DNA of 57,499 nucleotides from Desulfurococcales archaeon (GTDB lineage: Archaea > Thermoproteota > Thermoprotei_A > Sulfolobales > NBVN01). A program made the translations under genes and the position numbers. Position 1 is the stretch's first letter. Each line of letters begins with the position of its first letter. Of the stretch, positions 6,856-57,466 are shown in pieces. The notes under the pieces were generated by a model. The model had not been told where the DNA came from and did not search any database. It saw only the letters and a program-made list of their open reading frames with translations. The DNA lies in assembly GCA_015521295.1 (NCBI GenBank), contig WAOL01000065.1, forward strand, positions 1 to 57,499, written 5' to 3'.

Positions 6856-7608
6856 GTGGATGAAAGGCGCTCGAAGATATTCAGAGTAAGGAAGGGAGAT
6901 ACTGTAGGGACGGACAAAGGCATCTTACATGTTGATGATGTGATAGGGAAGGAGTGGGGTAGCGAGGTAAGACTATCGACAGGAGCTAAGGCCTACCTCC
7001 TAAAGCCGACGCCCGTGGACTTCACCATGAGGGGCTTCAGGAGAGTCACGCAGGTAATCTATCCTAAGGACTCTTCACTCATGGTGACGCTCTCCGGCAT
7101 AAGGTACGGTAGTCGTGTGCTAGAGTCAGGTATCGGCACAGGTTTCCTGACAGCCATACTTGCCCATGTCGTAGGTGATGCAGGACATGTTTACGCGTAT
7201 GAAATCCGCGAGGAGTTCGCTAGGGTCGCACTAAGGAACCTTAGCATGATGGGATTGGCCGATAGAGTTACTGTGAAGGTAAGGGACGTTAAGCAAGGTA
7301 TTGATGAGGAGGGGCTTGACGCGGCGTTTCTGGACTTACCGGATCCTTGGGAAGTGTTGAAGTTATTGCCTGGCTCCCTTAAACCGTCCTCACCCGTGCT
7401 GGTGTTCGTGCCTTCAGTTAATCAAGTAATAAAGACTCTGGCATGGCTGAAGAAAGGGCCGTATGTGGATGTGAGGGTTTACGAGAACATACTTAGGGAG
7501 TACCAGCCCGTGCCTGAAGCGTTGAGACCGCAGACGATTTCAGTTACGCATACGGGTTACATAATATTTGCTCGCCTAATCCGTAAGACTGAGGACTTAC
7601 CTACGTGA
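6856..7608 (+). CDS. trmI: tRNA (adenine-N1)-methyltransferase TrmI/Gcd14 family
   Basis: SAM motif VLESGIGTGFLT and LDLPDPW. The conserved N-terminal IREGDYVLL lies in frame upstream of the first canonical start (GTG 6856). Confidence 0.85.
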   Translation: MDERRSKIFRVRKGDTVGTDKGILHVDDVIGKEWGSEVRLSTGAKAYLLKPTPVDFTMRGFRRVTQVIYPKDSSLMVTLSGIRYGSRVLESGIGTGFLTAILAHVVGDAGHVYAYEIREEFARVALRNLSMMGLADRVTVKVRDVKQGIDEEGLDAAFLDLPDPWEVLKLLPGSLKPSSPVLVFVPSVNQVIKTLAWLKKGPYVDVRVYENILREYQPVPEALRPQTISVTHTGYIIFARLIRKTEDLPT

Positions 7609-7652
7609 AAACGCTTTTATGTAGCGCCAAGTAAAGCTTTGCGGGATCCCGT

Positions 7653-8876
7653 GTGGGCAGAGGGGTAGGCATCAGGACCGTGGGGCTGGACCTACTCTTC
7701 ATGGGCGTTAACTTCAGCGCATTAACACTGTTCAGCACCTTAAAGGACTTCTTCGCAAGCGAGTACGGCATGACCCCGACCCAGCTTCAGTGGGCCGCGG
7801 CCGCCTACTCGATAGGGATCTTCGCGGCATTCTTCATAGGGCACTCGAAGTACGTGGAGGAGCACCCCAAAGCGACCGTGCTAGCGGCGGCGATTCTAGC
7901 GGCTATCCCTCAATTCTTGATACCGGTTTCCGGTTCTCCAGCAGCGGTTATAGCGTTACGTTTCCTGCAAGGCTTAGTGATGATGGCGGTACCCATATTC
8001 TCCTCCCAGGTAGGCACGTTATTCTCGCATGCTAGGCCCCTAGCACTCGGCATAATACTGTCCGGGATATTCATAGGGGGCTTTGTAGGGAGCAACGTCG
8101 GCTGGCAACTGGCTGTGGCGTACGGCTGGAGAACAGCCTACATGGTCTTCGGCCTAGCGATGCTGATCGTCGCTCTAATATGGATAGGCTTGACCTCACC
8201 GGAAACGTTGCCTAGACATGCACATAAAGTCGAGGTAAGTAGCGCGTCCAGGGGAAGCGTTTGGAGGAAACCATTTACCATAGTGTGGGGCTTCACGTTC
8301 TTCCCCTCAATATGGATAATATTCACGTTAGCCCCGCTCATAGCCTTCATAGTTACGGCATCCTTCGGTACGGAGCTAGCTAGGACCTCGTCCGAGACCC
8401 TCGAAGCCTCATACATGTTCTGGTCAATAACCGTAGGTGCCGTAGCATACCTAGTGTCGAGGAGAGGAAGCGGGAACCCACGTCAACTCTTCAAGTCGTT
8501 TGCCTACGTGCAGGCAGCATGCTTTGTATTCGCATTAATAGGGGCTCTTAGTGCGTATGCGGCGAGCATGTCCGGTAGCGCAGTAGCGTTGCTCGCCTCC
8601 CTTTTCATACTAGCGGTAATTCAAGGTACAGCACCGACGTTCTGGTCAATACCCTCGACAGCCTACCCTAGAGAGGAAGTAACTAGGGCAGGCTACGCTT
8701 TAGGGCTGATATCAAACTCTGCAGCAATGATAGGCCCCGTAGCGTCGATACTAGTGGCCTCACTATCCACGAGCATGTGGTTGCTGACGTCGTTCCTGTC
8801 GCTTATGGGGTTAGTGTTGACCCTTGCCGCGTTGAAGCTAAAATTACCTGTAGAGGAAGTGGGAGAGAATACCTAA
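7653..8876 (+). CDS. MFS-type transporter
   Basis: 407 aa with about 12 hydrophobic segments in a two-halves arrangement. Confidence 0.7.
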   Translation: MGRGVGIRTVGLDLLFMGVNFSALTLFSTLKDFFASEYGMTPTQLQWAAAAYSIGIFAAFFIGHSKYVEEHPKATVLAAAILAAIPQFLIPVSGSPAAVIALRFLQGLVMMAVPIFSSQVGTLFSHARPLALGIILSGIFIGGFVGSNVGWQLAVAYGWRTAYMVFGLAMLIVALIWIGLTSPETLPRHAHKVEVSSASRGSVWRKPFTIVWGFTFFPSIWIIFTLAPLIAFIVTASFGTELARTSSETLEASYMFWSITVGAVAYLVSRRGSGNPRQLFKSFAYVQAACFVFALIGALSAYAASMSGSAVALLASLFILAVIQGTAPTFWSIPSTAYPREEVTRAGYALGLISNSAAMIGPVASILVASLSTSMWLLTSFLSLMGLVLTLAALKLKLPVEEVGENT

Positions 8877-8889
8877 TCTCTGATTCTCT

Positions 8890-9234
8890 TTATTTTTCCG
8901 GTTCCTTAGTGCTCCCCTTAACCCACTCAAGGTATTCTGGATTACCTAATGAGACACCCAATGCTAGGATCTCAGGCACACTGTATGGGTGTATTTCCTT
9001 GACATAATCCATCAGCTCTTGGAGTAAGTCCTGCCTCGTTTTACATATGAGTAGTGCTTCATCGTCTTCAACTACTTTACCTTCCCACCAATACAGTGAC
9101 TTTATGTCCCTGACTATGTTGACGCACGCAACTAGCTTGCGCTCAACTAGCTTCCTAGCAATGTCGTCTGCACTACGGGGTGGCACCGTAATGAGTACTA
9201 CGGCGTACTTACCCTTCTCTTCTGTATCTCTCAT
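8890..9234 (-). CDS. cutA: CutA divalent-cation tolerance protein
   Basis: KLVACVNIV...SLYWWEGKV.EDDEALLICKT...IHPYSVPEI. Confidence 0.85.
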   Translation of the reverse strand: MRDTEEKGKYAVVLITVPPRSADDIARKLVERKLVACVNIVRDIKSLYWWEGKVVEDDEALLICKTRQDLLQELMDYVKEIHPYSVPEILALGVSLGNPEYLEWVKGSTKEPEK

Positions 9235-14726: not shown

Positions 14727-16736
14727 TCAGCTCCCGAGGTCAAGGAAGTCGGGGAAGTTCTCTAGAGTTAATTCAGCTTTCCTGGCCTTCCTGCTTCTGG
14801 CTCTCCTAGCACTTCGTTGAAGCTCTAATATGAACGAGTGCTTTCTCCTGGGCCTGCCTTTGGGGTTGTTAAGTAATTGAGGAATCAGAAGCCTCTCAGT
14901 GAATACCTCCGCGATAGGGCATGCTTCTATGCACGCTTTGCAACCTATGCATCTTCTGGGATCCACTACGGGACGACCTTCCTTTACCTTGATGGCGTTC
15001 GTCGGGCACCAGATCTCACAACTACCGCATGAGCAACATTTACTCCACCTAACCATAATCTTAAGTACATCAAAGGCAGTTTCTCTGGCATCGGGACCCT
15101 GAACTTCCACCTCATTAGGGCGTACTATGATGGTATTGCCTGACTTCCTAAGTGTGAGGGCACAGTCATCGTTAGGGTTATTGCTGCATACTTTCTCGGG
15201 TGGTGTGTCAGCTATGATGCTCCATTGCTCACATATGCTATCTAGGCTTAGTTGCCCATTGATTATCCTTATCCTATAATGATCCTCGCTTAGGGAGATA
15301 GGAGCCAGTGAGAGCCCACTGACCCTTTCGTAGAGTAATCGCCAGTCGCTGGGTTTCTTTATCCCTAACCAAGACTCCAGCCTTCTCCTTCCCTGAGACA
15401 GAGGGTTTAACCATCGCCATAAGTGGTACCTTATCCAGAGGTCACTCTCGTTGAGTCTTTCCTTCCACTCAATTAGCACGTGTTCCCATCTCCGCCAGCA
15501 CTCCGGGTAATTTCTCTCAACCATGTAATACTCAGCAATGTTACCTGCCGGACACATGAAGCACCCAAGCCTATCGAATCCTTTAAAGTAGAGTTCGTTT
15601 ACCGGGAGCCTCCTCTGTAGTATGTAAAACCATACTGTCAGTTGATCCCATTCCTGCAGCGGTGATATGTTGAGCGCGGCCGGCAGCCATCGATTGCGCC
15701 ACACCGCACCCGACCTGGACCTATCGACCGACTCGAAGGCCCGCTGACCTATTATTGCTAATAATCCGTTGGGGAAGTACTTCTTGTAGATTCGGGCGAT
15801 AGGAGCCATCTTAACTACTTTGCAACACCAGCGATAGTCCTTGGCAGGCGGGCCAAAGATGTTTACCGAGTCCCAGAACTTGTTGCCGGCTGACGCGGTG
15901 AGTAGCCTAAGGCCAAACTTATGGGCCACGTCATCAACGTTCTTGAGCGTCGGCGGAAGTTCGAGTCCGGTATCGTTAAACAGGATTACTGGTTCCAGCC
16001 CTGCTTCCATGGTTAGGGAGAGTGCCGTGATTGAGTCCTTACCTCCTGAGTAGGAAACCACTGGTGGGAGACCCGTTTTCTCTGCCATCATCACTAGGTT
16101 CTTAATAGCTTTCGATAATCTACTCCTTACCCAAAGGTCATTGCATTTCTCAAAGAGATTGAAGGAAGATGGCTTCCTTATTATTTCTCCCACTTGCTCC
16201 TTGAATACTGTCTGAACTCTGTAACGTCCGCGCCTAACGACGGCCAGTGCTACAGGTTCTCCCGAATTATCGATCACTACCGCCTGATTCCCTTCCCTGT
16301 CTCCGGGTCCTAAGTCCATTAGTGGCTTTGCCTTCCCCACCTTGAATGCACGTATCAGCCCTAAGTCCAGGGCTATTGGCGCGCTTACCTTATTAAGTCG
16401 CCAACGCCAAGCATACGTTGAGGGATCAAAGTACAGTCTGCCAACTATCGTGCCTCCCGAAATAACCTCCTTCATATCATCATAATGTGGTGTCTTATTC
16501 AGGTACACTGCGCCATCAACTATGAGTTCCCTATAGAGGGCATCACTCCCGAACTCGTACAGCATGGCTTCCCTAATTAGTGATAGGTCACTTGCGAACG
16601 CCGGTCTCGCGTCTCCGGGCTCCGATATGTTGACCTTAAATCCCTCACCCCCGCATCGGCTACATATCCTCTGCCTCAGCGGGACGTTGCAATTAGGGCA
16701 CCAATAAAGCGTCAGCGTCACTCCCCAAGGTCTCAC
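14727..16736 (-). CDS. PP-loop ATPase of the PAPS-reductase family, fused to an N-terminal Zn-ribbon/PUA-like region and a C-terminal 2x[4Fe-4S] ferredoxin domain
   Basis: CPNCN..CSRCGG; PP-loop SYSGGKDS; C-terminal CSCGSCEIWCP and CIGCKACIEACP; basic tail RRARSRKARK. Confidence 0.8.
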   Translation of the reverse strand: MRPWGVTLTLYWCPNCNVPLRQRICSRCGGEGFKVNISEPGDARPAFASDLSLIREAMLYEFGSDALYRELIVDGAVYLNKTPHYDDMKEVISGGTIVGRLYFDPSTYAWRWRLNKVSAPIALDLGLIRAFKVGKAKPLMDLGPGDREGNQAVVIDNSGEPVALAVVRRGRYRVQTVFKEQVGEIIRKPSSFNLFEKCNDLWVRSRLSKAIKNLVMMAEKTGLPPVVSYSGGKDSITALSLTMEAGLEPVILFNDTGLELPPTLKNVDDVAHKFGLRLLTASAGNKFWDSVNIFGPPAKDYRWCCKVVKMAPIARIYKKYFPNGLLAIIGQRAFESVDRSRSGAVWRNRWLPAALNISPLQEWDQLTVWFYILQRRLPVNELYFKGFDRLGCFMCPAGNIAEYYMVERNYPECWRRWEHVLIEWKERLNESDLWIRYHLWRWLNPLSQGRRRLESWLGIKKPSDWRLLYERVSGLSLAPISLSEDHYRIRIINGQLSLDSICEQWSIIADTPPEKVCSNNPNDDCALTLRKSGNTIIVRPNEVEVQGPDARETAFDVLKIMVRWSKCCSCGSCEIWCPTNAIKVKEGRPVVDPRRCIGCKACIEACPIAEVFTERLLIPQLLNNPKGRPRRKHSFILELQRSARRARSRKARKAELTLENFPDFLDLGS

Positions 16737-16787
16737 AGATAGTCACCTAACCATTGTGTTCAAGCACATTTTTTAAGCCTCCCAATT

Positions 16788-17066
16788 TTGCGGGTGGCAA
16801 CCTTGGACGTAGTGACGTTCGTTAGGAACTTGACGGTACAGATAATGGCTATCGCGTGGGCACTGTTCCTAGTGTCCTGGGTCGTAGGGTGGGCTGTTCG
16901 GGGCTCGCCCGTACCCATACATAGGGTGAAGAAGGCTGGGCAGTCGCTGGTAGAGGATGCTGTAATGGCGGCTTTCTGGATGGCGGTGGGCTCCTCAATA
17001 TTCGCACTAATTTCGTACCTAACGTCAAACCTCTACCAGCCATTACCCCCTCCGCCAAAGCCCTGA
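16788..17066 (+). CDS. Small 2-TM hairpin membrane protein (VirB2/CedA1/TedC-like architecture)
   Basis: Two hydrophobic helices (IMAIAWALFLVSWVVGWAV and AVMAAFWMAVGSSIFALISYL) are joined by a basic loop, RGSPVPIHRVKKAGQ. PPPPKP tail. The start could be GTG 16812 or ATG 16845. Confidence 0.55.
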   Translation: MRVATLDVVTFVRNLTVQIMAIAWALFLVSWVVGWAVRGSPVPIHRVKKAGQSLVEDAVMAAFWMAVGSSIFALISYLTSNLYQPLPPPPKP

Positions 17067-17079
17067 GCGGTGGGTACCC

Positions 17080-18423
17080 TTGGAAATACTGTTGCTAGCC
17101 ATGGACATAGCCATGCTAACATACGTGATCGGCGTGCTAATACTTGCATTGCCAATACCGCTTAGGTCAGTCAAGCGGTGGGGACCCAGATTAATAGCTG
17201 ACGCCATAGCTGCGGTGATTCTAGCGTCCTCAGCCACGCTGATACTATACCTCGGCAATGAATTGCTAAGAGTTGTAGGCGCAGACTGGCCTTCCTTCTA
17301 TGCATGGTTAAGTGCTCGAACAGCAGCACTAGGCGGTGTTTTTGCCGGCCTAACATACGCTGCCTCCTTCATTAAGTCAACAGAGTACTCTTACCTTTCA
17401 TCACCATTGAAGATGGCAGCATCGTTTCTAGCCACTTCGTTCTCCGCGCTTCGCGGGCTGTACCTGCTTTCGTCCTTTATCTATATATATAGGGACAAGC
17501 TGACGAGTATAGGGATACTGCTATATTCACTCCCCTTCCGTATCGGGAAAGGTGTTGGGGCTTTCTTCATAGCGGCATCTCTCATTATGTATGTTGGCAT
17601 GCCATTACTGCCTGCCTTCGTGTCGTCCTTCGAAAACGTAACCGTCGCCAGCGGGTTTAAGTGGAACTCCGAAACTATTAGGATACAGGTTGTTGACGCG
17701 TTAGGGAACCCGGTGCCTTACCCTGTACTTAATTTCTATAGTGAGAATTCCCTCGGAAAACCCGTGGGGATAATCGTAGGTGATGAAGCAGGACGTGCGG
17801 TCATAGGTGATGGTCTGGACGCATTACCTGAGAATTTCAAACTCAATGTAAAGGTGTTGTTCATGGGATACATAATAACGCCGAGTCCAAGTGTGATTAA
17901 GCATGGAGACAGTAATGTTAAGCTGGTGCTTAAGAGTTTGGTATACTCCTCTGGGGCAGCCCTGTTAATACCTTGGGGAACCGAAATTATATATTGTAAC
18001 GTAACCCCCGGAAGGATCTCTGTGGACCTATACACGGATACCGGCTTCACGACCTACTTAACCGTTGTAAAGGGGGCGAACGTGTCAGCAATAATGCTCG
18101 ACGGGAGTACCTTAACCTGTAACTTCACAGAGAGATTCTGGGCAGGAATATTAATGAAGGACTGCATGTTCCCCACCCCCTCAGGCGAGCACAACATAAC
18201 GGTTGAGTATACCCCATCCTTCTATGCTAAGCCTAGCGTAAATGAGAAGCGAATAACGTATCTGAGTTCGATATTCGACATAATCACAGGAATATTGACC
18301 CTCTGTATATCCTTCCTTTACGCCCTAGTATTCCTGCCAGGGGTATACTTAGCAATACTTCTCGCAATGTCGGCCGCATTAGCACGGGTCCTTGGTGGCG
18401 GACTAAAGCTTAAGCTGGTGTAA
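17080..18423 (+). CDS. Polytopic membrane protein with a large extracytoplasmic beta-rich domain (VirB6/CedA-like architecture)
   Basis: About 6 N-terminal TM segments, a roughly 200-aa domain with five N-x-S/T sequons, and 2 C-terminal TM segments. Confidence 0.7.
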   Translation: MEILLLAMDIAMLTYVIGVLILALPIPLRSVKRWGPRLIADAIAAVILASSATLILYLGNELLRVVGADWPSFYAWLSARTAALGGVFAGLTYAASFIKSTEYSYLSSPLKMAASFLATSFSALRGLYLLSSFIYIYRDKLTSIGILLYSLPFRIGKGVGAFFIAASLIMYVGMPLLPAFVSSFENVTVASGFKWNSETIRIQVVDALGNPVPYPVLNFYSENSLGKPVGIIVGDEAGRAVIGDGLDALPENFKLNVKVLFMGYIITPSPSVIKHGDSNVKLVLKSLVYSSGAALLIPWGTEIIYCNVTPGRISVDLYTDTGFTTYLTVVKGANVSAIMLDGSTLTCNFTERFWAGILMKDCMFPTPSGEHNITVEYTPSFYAKPSVNEKRITYLSSIFDIITGILTLCISFLYALVFLPGVYLAILLAMSAALARVLGGGLKLKLV

Positions 18424-18426
18424 GCC

Positions 18427-18588
18427 ATGCGTACGGCAGTGAGGTTAGCACTAGTGCTGGGAGCTGTGATTACTGCTGTGTTAAGCATGCATCCCTCTCT
18501 GGAAGTGTTGTGTTTAACGGTCATCATCACCTTGCTTTACGTGATTAGCGAGTATGTAATGTATAGGATTAGCGAGAAACCTACTTGA
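18427..18588 (+). CDS. Small 2-TM membrane protein (53 aa, below the ORF-track cutoff)
   Basis: Hand translation gives MRTAVRLALVLGAVITAVLSMHPSLEVLCLTVIITLLYVISEYVMYRISEKPT. The ATG lies 4 nt after the preceding stop. Confidence 0.4.
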   Translation: MRTAVRLALVLGAVITAVLSMHPSLEVLCLTVIITLLYVISEYVMYRISEKPT

Positions 18589-28455: not shown

Positions 28456-28570
<115 letters not shown>

Positions 28571-40883: not shown

Positions 40884-40971
40884 GCCGGGGTGCCCGAGCG
40901 GCCCAAGGGGCCGGCCTGGAGAGCCGGTGGGCTACGCGCCCACGCGGGTTCAAATCCCGCCCCCGGCGCCA
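40884..40971 (+). tRNA. tRNA-Ser(GGA), long variable arm, CCA encoded
   Basis: GCCGGGG/CCCCGGC acceptor, CCGGC-CUGGAGA-GCCGG anticodon arm, 16-nt variable arm, GCGGG-UUCAAAU-CCCGC T arm. TATA-like CTTTAAAA at 40851-40858. Confidence 0.9.
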
Positions 40972-46766: not shown

Positions 46767-48116
46767 TTAGGACTTAGAGAGCATCAGTTCCCTCAAGTAA
46801 TCAGCTATGCGCTCTATAGGCATCTCACCGCCCATCCCGCGAGACACCGTCCCTTCAGGGTCGTAGACGGTGAACACGCCATGCCAGTCATGAACCGCGT
46901 CGTCAGGCCCTCTGTCGTTCTCCGGAAGGAACGGAGTGTCCCACCCAACGGTTCCAGCAGCGCGCCAGCTTAGGTCGTCGAAGTACGCCATCAGGTCAGG
47001 CGGGTCACCCCGCACTTCAGGGTATATTTCCTCCGGTCTAAGCACTATGTTGCGCCATAACGCGCCATTATCGCCTTTCACTCTCCGTAAGTCGTTGGAG
47101 AGTTGCGTTATGACGTCATCGAATTCTTCCTTGCCGACAATTCCCTTCGGTTCCCTGCCCTTTAGGTTGATGAAGATGCGTGAGTAGTAGCCTCCCCAGC
47201 CCCAAGCTATTGTTGAGTCCCAGTCAATCATCTCTCTGGTTAGGTCAGTGCCGGGCTTCTTCGGCTTCTCCTTCAGCTTCAGGTACCCCTCCTTAATGAG
47301 CCATTCGTTCACGGCGAACGCGCCAGCCATAGACTTGACGCCATGGTCGGACGCAACAACTATTATCGTGTCCTTCGGCAATGCTTTCCTGATTCTCTTG
47401 AACCCCTCGTCTATTAACTTGTAGTAGTCGGGGATCACACGTGATAGCTCCTTGTTCTCCTCGTACCTAGGGTGGGAGACGTCGAAGTACTTCCAGAAGG
47501 CATGATGTATTCTGTCAATACCTATCTCAACGTATATGAAGAGGTCCCATGCTTTGCGCTTAACTAGGTACTCAATTATCTTCAGGTGCTGCCTAGTCAT
47601 CTGGAAGAGTTCGTCCCTAACCCTCTCCTTATCATGCCTCCTGAACTTCACGTCGAATATGAGTGGTCCGAACCTCGACTCTAGCTCATGCTTAAGCCAC
47701 GGCGGGAACGCGTACTGGTTTTCCGGGCCCGGAGTCATGAAGTCCGTTATCATGAAGCCCCTCACGGGCCTCGGCGGATATGTTGGGGGCACCCCGAAAA
47801 TCCCTACACGACCGCCAGCACGGCTGATGGTATCCCATAGTGTCTGATGCTTAATGAAGTTCGAGTTTATTATGTAGGTGTGTCCAACATCCCCAGGCTT
47901 CCTATGCCTGAACCCATAAATGCCTAACTCTCCCGGCGTCTTACCGGTGAACATCACTAGCCACGCCGGTATCGTTATTGGCGGGTGGCAGGTGCGCATT
48001 AACCACCTTCTGGAGTCATCTATGAGCGAGCCCAACACGGGAATGTCGACACCGTACCTCTCGTATAGGGTTTTCGGCGGCGCCGAGTCCAGCCCAAGCA
48101 CGAATACTTTCCTCAA
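46767..48116 (-). CDS. Alkaline-phosphatase-superfamily nucleotide pyrophosphatase/phosphodiesterase (NPP)-like enzyme
   Basis: VLGLDSA...PPITIPAW..MFTGK.PGE.GI N-terminal metal/nucleophile motif and a later ASDHG. No signal peptide or TM segment. Confidence 0.7.
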   Translation of the reverse strand: MRKVFVLGLDSAPPKTLYERYGVDIPVLGSLIDDSRRWLMRTCHPPITIPAWLVMFTGKTPGELGIYGFRHRKPGDVGHTYIINSNFIKHQTLWDTISRAGGRVGIFGVPPTYPPRPVRGFMITDFMTPGPENQYAFPPWLKHELESRFGPLIFDVKFRRHDKERVRDELFQMTRQHLKIIEYLVKRKAWDLFIYVEIGIDRIHHAFWKYFDVSHPRYEENKELSRVIPDYYKLIDEGFKRIRKALPKDTIIVVASDHGVKSMAGAFAVNEWLIKEGYLKLKEKPKKPGTDLTREMIDWDSTIAWGWGGYYSRIFINLKGREPKGIVGKEEFDDVITQLSNDLRRVKGDNGALWRNIVLRPEEIYPEVRGDPPDLMAYFDDLSWRAAGTVGWDTPFLPENDRGPDDAVHDWHGVFTVYDPEGTVSRGMGGEMPIERIADYLRELMLSKS

Positions 48117-56101: not shown

Positions 56102-57466
56102 TCATGGTAGCTTAGAAGGTACGGCATTACTTAAGAGCCAAGCAACGTACAGCCACTGGAGTCCAACGTACAGTGGAACTACCCACCTCCATTTCCTCGA
56201 TCCCCATGCCTGACTTAACGCGTAAGCTACGAACAACCAGTACGCGGTGTTCATGAGTACTCTATGAACCATGAATCGAGGGGTTAAGGTGAGCAACGGG
56301 ACAAGTGTTAATGCGGTCGAGGTTAAGAATGGTAAGTATTTACTTAACTCCCCCTCTCTCCATACCTTAATACCCCCGGCCGTTGCCAGTAAATAAGTTA
56401 GCCATGTTGCTGGAACTCCCCAAAGCATGATTAATAGCTGGAAGTCCAACTGGGTTATTGTTGGCGCGCCACTAGCCAATAACTTGCCCGCGAGCACCAC
56501 ATACCTCGGGGACACTAATAACTCCCTTGCCACTAGCCATGAAGAACCGCTAACGACCCACGTAACAAGGGTGGGGATATCCAGAAGAAAGAGCGGCGTA
56601 TACAGTATCCAAGCCTCCGAGTGAGTAGCTGCTGTAGCTAGGGACGCTACCCCAAGCAATGCAAGCCTACGGATCTCTACGGAACTTTCACGCCACCCAA
56701 GCCGCCAATAAAGGGTAGCTAACGCTAAGCACATTGCCGCGAGGTTAGCGTGATAACCGCCAAAGACGAAGTAGAGGGGAACAGAAGCAAGGAGCGCGGC
56801 CGTGAACCCAAACCACTTTCCGATCCCCACCCTCCTACATACGCCTTCCGCAAGCACCGTCACCAAGGCACCAGCACCAGCTATGTAGAGTACGTCAAAC
56901 ACCCTGAACGGAATAAGCCTAGTTATCAGGAAGACGAACCCCACGAAGAGCGGTCTATCACCCTGATTGAACTCCAGTAACCTAACTGTTATGTTGCCCC
57001 ACTCAGTGCTCCGTAGCCAGCGCCAGTAGTAAATATGGTCAACATCAACTAACACGCCCCTAGGATTCAGCCACGGGTAGTAAGGAGCCATAAGCATTAT
57101 GAAAGCAATCAGCCAAGCGGTCACAGCCTCACTAAGCGTTAAGGAATCGCTACCAAATACCTTAACCCTAAGCAACCAGCCCCACTTAAGCCTCCTAGCC
57201 TGCCTTAGTAACGAAGCAACTAATAACCCGGTACACACAGCTAAGGCAACGTACCATACCTTAGCGGAAGGCACACCTGCAACGTACAAGGACAAAAGAA
57301 CGTACGCAACTCCGCGCCCGCCACCCAACGCTGCCACACCGCCGACAAACCCGATTATGAGTACGATGTAGGCAAGAGTCGCCCAGTACTCAAGCGCTGA
57401 CCTAATTCTAAGGAACGGAACCACACCCACAATCATGGCTACCCAAGACGCTATTAGGGCTGTCAC
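56102..57466 (-). CDS. Polytopic membrane protein (about 12 TM), possibly a glycan polymerase/transferase
   Basis: 454 aa, almost entirely hydrophobic helices, adjacent to nucleotide-sugar genes. No diagnostic motif recognised. Confidence 0.6.
   Translation of the reverse strand: MTALIASWVAMIVGVVPFLRIRSALEYWATLAYIVLIIGFVGGVAALGGGRGVAYVLLSLYVAGVPSAKVWYVALAVCTGLLVASLLRQARRLKWGWLLRVKVFGSDSLTLSEAVTAWLIAFIMLMAPYYPWLNPRGVLVDVDHIYYWRWLRSTEWGNITVRLLEFNQGDRPLFVGFVFLITRLIPFRVFDVLYIAGAGALVTVLAEGVCRRVGIGKWFGFTAALLASVPLYFVFGGYHANLAAMCLALATLYWRLGWRESSVEIRRLALLGVASLATAATHSEAWILYTPLFLLDIPTLVTWVVSGSSWLVARELLVSPRYVVLAGKLLASGAPTITQLDFQLLIMLWGVPATWLTYLLATAGGIKVWREGELSKYLPFLTSTALTLVPLLTLTPRFMVHRVLMNTAYWLFVAYALSQAWGSRKWRWVVPLYVGLQWLYVAWLLSNAVPSKLP

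Follow-up and report, generated by a model that had tools for sequence, protein, structure and literature searches.

A cedA1-cedA gene cluster with an ectodomain-bearing CedA in a Desulfurococcales contig: probable components of a Ced-type DNA-exchange system

Three consecutive genes for membrane proteins, arranged as in the archaeal Ced system, are the subject of this study. They lie in the 57,499-nt stretch of contig WAOL01000065.1 which we analyzed as a whole and call the window, and all three are encoded on the (+) strand. The first (open reading frame 1, ORF1; cedA1, 16788..17066) encodes a VirB2-like Ced pilin, the second (ORF2; cedA, 17080-18423) is a called ORF of 447 aa encoding a polytopic protein of the CedA family, and the third (ORF3, 18427-18588) encodes a CedA2-like hairpin protein of 53 aa with two transmembrane (TM) segments, named after its position and architecture. 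An earlier note made from the sequence alone, referred to here as the original prediction, described three tightly spaced co-directional genes, and the spacing is indeed tight, with a gap of 13 nt between cedA1 and cedA and of 3 nt between cedA and ORF3. For comparison, a scan of one genome per GTDB species yielded 40 related loci (L001-L040), and cedA1 is directly upstream of cedA in all 40 of them.

The comparisons made with ORF1 show it to be an orthologue of the CedA1 pilin. It scored 121.2 bits against the NCBIfam model NF041797 (Ced_CedA1), above the curated cutoff of 100 (E 1.4e-35), with 1-74 of the 75 model positions covered, and in a phmmer search 74 of its residues (aa 6-79 onto 2-75, E 1.7e-23) aligned to PDB entry 8DFU, the conjugation-like pilus of A. 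pernix. The protein is a two-helix hairpin, with hydrophobic segments at aa 14-38 and 57-78 and the basic loop RGSPVPIHRVKKAGQ between them, so the helix-loop-helix pilin with a basic loop that had been proposed is well founded. The ratio of nonsynonymous to synonymous substitutions (dN/dS), calculated here and below against close relatives, is 0.01-0.05. It needs to be mentioned that our local Pfam-A copy is older than PF27251 ('CedA1') and assigned none of the three proteins to a family with significance; in precomputed annotations, PF27251 is found both on the pilin and on the N terminus of long CedA proteins.

The longest possible form of ORF1 has 92 aa, and we consider a TTG codon at 16803 the most likely start of the pilin, because the N-termini of the family match the product of this start and a TATA-like box lies about 27 nt upstream of it. 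Conservation begins around residue 6 of the longest form, the relatives begin with MDxxxF[IV]RxLT, and translation from TTG 16803 yields MDVVTFVRNLT..., a protein of 87 aa. The 73-aa form beginning with ATG, which had also been put forward, is too short, as it would cut into residues 6-24, a conserved stretch that can be aligned to the solved pilin. The box itself, TTTTTTAA (16769..16776, +), was read from the sequence within the 51-nt divergent intergenic region that separates cedA1 from a gene for a 3'-phosphoadenosine 5'-phosphosulfate (PAPS)-reductase-like protein, and its distance from TTG 16803 would fit a leaderless or near-leaderless archaeal transcript. The conserved N terminus of ORF1 begins at the start codon, with no signal peptide-like extension in front of it.

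The second protein, ORF2, was matched by the NCBIfam model NF041796 (Ced_CedA) in two stretches (E 1.8e-49), aa 2-197 falling onto profile positions 6-204 of 259. In a BLASTP comparison with the 249-aa Metallosphaera CedA, identity was 36% over residues 2-213, and the last helix (417-441) aligned onto 214-238; the model of CedE, a CedA paralogue, also matched (E 4.5e-34, under its equivalog cutoff). An AlphaFold2 (AF2) model, based on a 27-sequence alignment and having a mean predicted local distance difference test score (pLDDT) of 83 (85.6 when the membrane core was modeled separately), contains helices at 2-23, 34-66, 70-99, 104-150 (47 aa) and 157-188, followed by a C-terminal one at 395-437. 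Five long N-terminal helices and one at the C terminus would make six to seven membrane passes, which replaces the approximately 6+2 TM segments suggested originally. As delimited by NF041796 and AF2, the five helices form the membrane core (aa 1-188, 17080..17643, +), while AF2 and the alignment to short CedA place the C-terminal helix with a basic tail (aa 395-447), together with the stop codon, at 18262..18423 (+). Mean pairwise identity in this C-terminal helix segment is 51% across the family, and dN/dS for the whole ORF2 is 0.03-0.07.

The first hairpin of the ORF2 core is pilin-like. This feature of the CedA N terminus has been published (PMC9905601) and was reproduced here with the CedA1 model, which matches aa 2-54 (E 8.9e-8), in a profile search of PDB sequences, where 8DFU was the sole real match (E 5.9e-6) and RNF8 matches (E ~0.2) were discarded as noise, and in a Foldseek search with the core, where 8DFU came at rank 3 with a probability of 0.97 for the first hairpin (root-mean-square deviation of 1.8 Å). 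The CedA1 and 8DFU matches fall on aa 2-57. A link between CedA and VirB6 comes from published HHpred and CEalign comparisons (PMC9905601, PMC11868833); our Pfam scan of ORF2 gave no VirB6 or TrbL match. An unrelated transporter or protease was also considered for ORF2 and rejected, no such family having been matched in Pfam and NCBIfam searches. The comparisons establish homology to CedA, and ORF2 is accordingly described here as a predicted polytopic membrane protein of this family and a putative VirB6-like platform or channel.

What sets ORF2 apart from the short Metallosphaera CedA is a stretch of about 200 residues which is inserted between helix 5 and the final helix, because the short protein aligns only on either side of it. 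This insert (aa 189-394, 17644..18261, +) comprises two beta-sandwich domains, the Cys347/Cys362 pair and four N-glycosylation sequons. AF2 predicts beta domains at aa ~197-380, with a pLDDT of ~85-92 in the insert region, and they are absent from the 249-aa Sulfolobales CedA; a beta-rich insert of this size was part of the original prediction and it stands. The first domain, D1 (~aa 197-291, nt 17668-17952, +), is CarboxypepD_reg/transthyretin-like according to AF2, Foldseek and Pfam, and the second, D2 (~aa 292-380, nt 17953-18219, +), is a beta-sandwich according to AF2. Foldseek matches of the beta part include transthyretin, the SusC NTE domain, teneurin and tandem Ig-like pilins such as BcpA, while in BFVD they are tandem sandwiches of the tail-fibre and surface-anchor type; a search with the full-length model was dominated by the beta domains and returned generic Ig-like or transthyretin-like matches. 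Pfam recognizes CarboxypepD_reg in 4 of the 27 family members, with a best E of 9.7e-7.

Throughout the family, loops 24-33 and 151-156 of ORF2 and the tail at its C terminus are basic and contain no acidic residue. Since these flanking segments obey the positive-inside rule, we infer that they are cytoplasmic and that the insert lies outside, as had been proposed, in a protein oriented N-out and C-in. The same orientation is the established topology of A. tumefaciens VirB6. The five N-X-S/T sequons counted earlier are all present in ORF2, at aa 186, 307, 334, 348 and 372. For ORF2 alone, the four sequons observed in the insert do not significantly exceed the 1.8 expected (P=0.08); family-wide, 86 sequons were found in the insert versus 47 expected from shuffles, which is an approximately 1.8-fold excess. 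Of 26 sequences, 23-24 keep the Cys347/Cys362 pair. Averaged over all pairs in the family, identity falls from 54% in the core to 39% in D1 and 25% in D2, so that the insert evolves faster, and it is nevertheless under purifying selection between close relatives.

How common such an insert is among CedA proteins could be judged from a profile search of 1.84 billion representatives clustered at 50% identity, which gave 259 matches at E<=1e-3. Lengths were sorted for the best 150 of these 259 clusters, and the query profile was made from long CedA forms only, so the ranking favors long forms. Within the best 150, about 100 clusters have 440-515 aa and match end to end, insert included; about 25 are short forms of 246-300 aa that match in two stretches; and a few proteins of ~485-511 aa match in the core only, which suggests other or diverged inserts. 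Members of long-form clusters that could be named come from Fervidicoccus fontis, Ignisphaera and Desulfurococcales metagenome-assembled genomes (MAGs). The insert was at first taken for an unusual elaboration; however, with ~100 of the 150 best clusters carrying it, it is the short Sulfolobales form that is in the minority, and the insert appears to be the common state of CedA outside Sulfolobales rather than a peculiarity of this locus. The Ced papers PMC9905601, PMC11823120 and PMC11868833 do not mention an ectodomain of CedA. The ectodomain-bearing CedA is a widespread, undescribed variant within the known Ced system.

The third gene, ORF3, has a dN/dS of 0.06-0.17, and for this reason we regard these 53 codons as a real gene; no family match was obtained for it in Pfam or NCBIfam. 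A hydrophobic hairpin ORF of 39-72 aa directly follows cedA in ~30 of the 40 loci, including Metallosphaera, and in sister lineages a hairpin-type ORF sits between cedA and an ATPase gene. All these hairpin proteins share one layout (basic N terminus, TM segment, short polar loop, TM segment, basic C terminus) with no invariant residue. In a leave-out test with a hidden Markov model, real hairpin sequences ranked 1st and 2nd against 2,000 shuffles each, a likeness that is weak beyond composition. The succession of a small 2-TM, a polytopic and a small 2-TM protein had been likened to cedA1-cedA-cedA2, and the order in Metallosphaera is identical; the positional CedA2 of Metallosphaera yellowstonensis itself matches the CedA2 model NF041798 weakly, with 23 bits against a cutoff of 80 (E 6.7e-5). 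The proposal of a CedA2-like third gene thus survives as regards size, the 2-TM hairpin and position, but not as regards a match to the CedA2 model. On grounds of position and architecture, we define ORF3 as a small hairpin protein that is conserved and takes the place of CedA2 in the gene order, and the occurrence of a CedA2-position gene in Desulfurococcales goes beyond the known picture.

Almost all of the 40 loci carry the label of uncultured Desulfurococcales, Desulfurococcaceae, Acidilobaceae or GTDB-style Sulfolobales MAGs, and this set includes Zestosphaera tikiterensis, Ca. Calypsonella and Ca. Tiamatella; only Metallosphaera yellowstonensis (L037), which is cultured, and a short contig in a Nitratiruptor-labelled bin (L040) fall outside it. 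In L001-L023 the wider gene order is also kept, from the PAPS-reductase-like gene through to genes for an 83-aa, a CxxCxxCC, a 133-aa and a 212-aa protein, and the clade has kept the trio although CedA identity within it goes down to 33-34%. At the closest loci, protein identity is 95-96%, and all relatives are MAGs of Desulfurococcales type; the host is therefore not a member of Thermoproteales, as was initially believed, but a Desulfurococcales archaeon that has not been cultured.

As to the motor of such a system, the original prediction stated that the window contains no ATPase, and neither tblastn nor a check of Walker A motifs revealed a VirB4/HerA-type P-loop ATPase there; Walker A motifs are confined to the window ORFs for a GTPase, RpoB, EF-1alpha and a small kinase-like protein. 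The situation in sister lineages is different. In L035, L036, L038 and L039, an ATPase of 439-506 aa with a GPTGxGKT motif starts at the stop codon of a long cedA and shows weak CedB, CedD and VirB4 matches. Profile searches with the Ced-linked ATPases brought up DUF87/HerA_C/AAA_10/TrwB_AAD_bind/FtsK-like proteins of 435-625 aa from Desulfurococcales, including the cultured Thermogladius. Ten of these were looked up on their contigs. In nine cases the ATPase gene belongs to an operon in which it is preceded by cedA1 (81-91 aa), a long cedA (455-483 aa) and, in many instances, a hairpin ORF of 47-66 aa, though in one of the nine (L046/L047) gene calling gave no cedA1 ahead of cedA; the tenth is at a contig end, with its upstream genes out of view. 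The order cedA1, long cedA, optional small ORF and DUF87/HerA_C/AAA_10/TrwB-like ATPase is found in L041, L043, L045-L048 and L050-L057. The two ATPase profile searches and ten contig look-ups revealed ATPases adjoining long cedA genes in other lineages only, none of them from the window's clade.

Some of these four-gene operons share flanking genes with the window. In L048, L056 and L057 the upstream gene is the same PAPS-reductase-like one, and L057 has, 3' of its ATPase gene, a homologue of the window's 83-aa gene that is 87 aa long and lies on the (-) strand (31% identity, E 1.8e-5). L057 thereby carries both flanking genes of the window, with an ATPase gene at that site. These shared flanks imply that the window's clade has the same site minus the ATPase gene, and this apparent syntenic absence goes beyond the known picture. 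If the system is active, its motor ATPase in the window's lineage would have to be encoded elsewhere, because it is not found at the cluster site. One other candidate was rejected, namely a 611-aa P-loop protein in L027, encoded ~6 kb upstream of cedA1, which has faint CedD/HerA matches (E ~1e-7) and no counterpart in the other loci.

It seems very probable to us that the trio represents the pilin, membrane-platform and accessory genes of an archaeal Ced DNA-exchange system; within the known Ced system, there is nothing out of the ordinary about the chromosomal locus in the window. In A. pernix, CedA1 and lipids polymerize into a conjugative-type (VirB2-like) pilus (PMC9905601). DNA import in Sulfolobus needs CedA and CedB, and deletion of CedA1 or CedA2 abolishes transfer (PMC9905601, PMC11823120, PMC11868833). 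In the scenario that we favor, CedA1 would build a lipid-containing conjugative-type pilus, and CedA, with its N terminus outside and C terminus inside, would nucleate or dock this pilus and form the membrane passage for incoming DNA. The ~200-residue insert, lying in the last outward loop of CedA, would project towards the surface layer (S-layer) as two glycosylated beta-sandwich domains and would most likely be a contact/recognition module or else surround the base of the pilus as a collar or spacer. The small hairpin protein would be an accessory or minor pilin-like subunit, and assembly and DNA translocation would be powered by a VirB4/HerA-like (CedB-like) ATPase of the kind encoded directly downstream in sister lineages.

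Several results weigh against this assignment and should be set beside it. The sequence-level assignment to Ced holds for two of the three proteins, ORF1 and ORF2; ORF3 gave no match to the CedA2 model NF041798 at E up to 10, and its likeness to positional counterparts barely exceeds that of shuffled controls. The score of ORF2 against NF041796, 168.7 bits, is under the equivalog cutoff of 330, which fits a 200-aa insertion plus divergence. When the core alone was compared with the PDB by Foldseek, no match reached significance, and the VirB6/TrwI structure 7o3v_H came at rank 9, with E 2.7 and a probability of 0.09. A tblastn search of the window with four Ced-linked ATPases found nothing under E 0.3, and none of the 34 loci from the window's clade has a VirB4/CedB/CedD-like ATPase gene within 10 kb of the cluster. 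The function that we propose for the ectodomain is purely inferential. We know of no genetically tractable member of Desulfurococcaceae, and DNA import by Ced has been demonstrated genetically in Sulfolobales only (PMC11823120, PMC11868833).

The sub-cutoff scores also have a practical consequence, as they explain why long CedA proteins are publicly named 'hypothetical' or 'uncharacterized', while those of 263 aa from Saccharolobus are called 'DNA import protein CedA'. That such proteins are annotated only as hypothetical had been anticipated, and it is true of the public long CedA records.

The original prediction left open whether the trio is Ced-like or Ted-like, and the first of these holds, since ORF1 and ORF2 match Ced models directly. 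Membership in Ted was rejected on account of these matches, the non-Thermoproteales host and the lack of a signal-peptide extension on ORF1. The Ted system of Thermoproteales (TedC/TedA/TedB) resembles Ced in having a pilin, a VirB6-like platform and a VirB4-like ATPase (PMC9905601); however, Ted proteins have no recognizable sequence similarity to those of Ced, and the signal peptide of TedC is cleaved. The Ced system of Sulfolobales consists of CedA1/CedA/CedA2 (Saci_0569/0568/0567) together with CedB (Saci_0748) and CedD. The window shares with it the gene order, a CedA1 that scores above the cutoff, the 36% identity of the CedA core and an ATPase unlinked to the trio (PMC11823120), but it differs in the ~200-aa two-domain ectodomain of CedA, in a third protein that lacks a CedA2 model match, and in that the window yielded neither Ups pili genes nor CedB or CedD. 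In the case of A. pernix, nearly the whole Ced pilin (APE_0220a, 8DFU) aligns to ORF1, and neither has a signal peptide-like extension. This organism belongs to another Desulfurococcales family, though, and CedA2 is reported to be absent from it (PMC11868833), while an ORF is present at the CedA2 position here; the window's putative pilus, unlike that of A. pernix, is known from its genes alone.

A further parallel is offered by the four-gene ced operons of other Desulfurococcales (L041-L057, for example in Thermogladius-like and ex4484 MAGs), which have a long CedA of the same domain layout, cedA1 upstream and a small 2-TM ORF downstream, but differ in the VirB4/HerA-like ATPase of 439-624 aa directly downstream and in CedA proteins that are 23-29% identical to ORF2. 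Desulfurococcales thus hold both a compact four-gene operon (pilin, platform, small hairpin and ATPase) and a clade without an ATPase at this site. In bacteria, 'extended VirB6' proteins, like long CedA, combine a polytopic helical core with a large central or C-proximal hydrophilic domain, although we obtained no sequence match and no significant fold match to VirB6 for long CedA; the role of the hydrophilic domains is unknown in bacteria too (PMC12857230). In comparison with bacterial type IV secretion systems (T4SS), the archaeal envelope has no outer membrane, and the VirB3, VirB5 and VirB7-10 stalk/core subunits are absent.

The alternative explanation that fares best, yet still an unlikely one, is that the CedA1 pilus serves adhesion, aggregation or some other exchange instead of DNA import, the ectodomain-bearing CedA being just an assembly platform. 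It may be argued that DNA import by Ced is known for Sulfolobales only, where Ced pili have never been seen (PMC11823120), while for A. pernix, whose CedA1 pili are visible, no DNA-transfer assay has been reported (PMC9905601). In the window's clade, moreover, neither an ATPase nor DNA-processing genes are linked to the trio, and the ectodomain resembles adhesin or pilin-type Ig-like modules. Nevertheless, the ATPases linked to these genes in sister lineages carry the DNA-translocase domains DUF87/HerA_C, FtsK_SpoIIIE, TrwB_AAD_bind and AAA_10, and transfer of single-stranded DNA is favored by the lumen seen in the published pilus as well as by homology to conjugative pili (PMC9905601).

We find it considerably less plausible still that the trio is a leftover of a four-gene ced operon that lost its ATPase, and that it is either non-functional or has an ATPase-independent role in the membrane. 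L057 and L048, which have the window's flanking genes and an ATPase gene between the small ORF and the downstream gene, are what makes one think of such a loss; ORF3 overlaps the downstream convergent gene, so there is no room for an ATPase gene or its remnant, and no candidate ATPase was found in the window or in the 34 related loci. On the other hand, all three genes are under strong purifying selection (dN/dS 0.01-0.17), the trio has been kept throughout a clade as diverged as this one (33-34% CedA identity), and cedB is at a separate locus in Sulfolobales as well (PMC9905601), so that an unlinked motor is normal for Ced. Finally, the idea that the genes belong to an integrated conjugative plasmid or other mobile element which exports its own DNA in the manner of a bacterial T4SS can draw on the homology of the parts to VirB2, VirB6 and VirB4 described in the literature, but we give it next to no credence, as the cluster is embedded in housekeeping synteny conserved in dozens of species-level genomes, no integrase, VirD4 or relaxase-like genes occur among the large window ORFs tested, and the window has neither a GC anomaly nor PHROG matches.

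Within the favored reading of the trio as Ced genes, the part that concerns CedA itself is of broader significance, as most CedA proteins in sequence space carry a conserved two-domain module that is predicted to be extracellular. Among the relatives of conjugation systems that have been domesticated by cells, only Ced and Ted are, to our knowledge, importers of DNA. The CedA module may bear on the question of how these machines cross the S-layer and recognize partner cells, and S-layer-binding components of Ced have been called for explicitly (PMC11823120). We tentatively raise the possibility, though the odds are rather against it, that in the two-domain ectodomain the archaeal Ced machine has its missing component for spanning the envelope or recognizing a partner. 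Ectodomains might assemble into an oligomeric collar that bears the CedA1 pilus through the pseudo-periplasm and the S-layer, or they might attach to the partner cell; where Ups pili are lacking, the ectodomain would then take over from both the T4SS stalk/core subunits of bacteria and the species recognition that Ups provides in Sulfolobales. If this were true, the family would have been defined by a derived, reduced form, the short CedA of Sulfolobales. The results provide targets for structural work in the cultured Thermogladius, Ignisphaera and Fervidicoccus, as well as a basis for better annotation.

The surroundings of the cluster are those of an ordinary chromosome. Upstream it is bounded by the divergent gene (14727-16736, -) for a 669-aa protein in which a PAPS-reductase-like domain is fused to one of the 4Fe-4S ferredoxin type (NCBIfam PRK13795-type 'hypothetical protein'), a neighbor of the ced genes kept in many Desulfurococcales loci, among them the ATPase-bearing L048, L056 and L057. 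Downstream, the boundary is the convergent gene for the 83-aa protein, which overlaps the end of ORF3. Other genes of the window are of the housekeeping type: DNA ligase, PolB, leucyl-tRNA synthetase, EF-1alpha, RNA polymerase, a proteasome subunit-like protein, a glycosidase and sugar-nucleotide enzymes. GC content along the window shows no anomaly, and a search of PHROGs gave 0 matches and hence nothing that would point to a viral or plasmid origin. A scan for sigma-70 promoters gave counts equal to the shuffled expectation and a scan for intrinsic terminators found none, both scans being uninformative for an archaeon.

Some further observations were made along the way. Two ORFs of ~450 aa in the window, at 46767-48116 (-) and 56102-57466 (-), have neither an NCBIfam match nor a Walker A motif. 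The sole tRNA gene reported by ARAGORN is tRNA-Ser(GGA) at 40884-40971; Rfam indicates another tRNA of 111 nt (62 bits) at 28459-28569 (-), which ARAGORN did not report and whose length suggests an intron-containing archaeal tRNA. Among the related loci, an Orc1/Cdc6-type gene lies divergently just upstream of cedA1 (~7600-8900, -) in L024, L025, L028, L029, L030, L032 and L034, and was checked in L024 (NF001623, 427 bits). A FlaI/BasE-like type-IV-pilus ATPase is encoded ~8 kb upstream in L024, L025 and L028-L030. In L034 (118-2505, +), a 795-aa FlaI-like ATPase is split by an intein-like segment, residues ~195-640 matching the intein-containing Tes, RpoA'' and PolD models. In L045 (1-1699, +), the four-gene ced operon has a giant gene of the tetrabrachion-like (S-layer stalk) kind a few kb upstream, which points to a Staphylothermus-like host. 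In L051 (8252-9294, +), ribosomal protein L4 appears as two ORFs (152 and 161 aa), whereas near-identical contigs have a single 271-aa gene, so the split is probably a frameshift or an assembly error.

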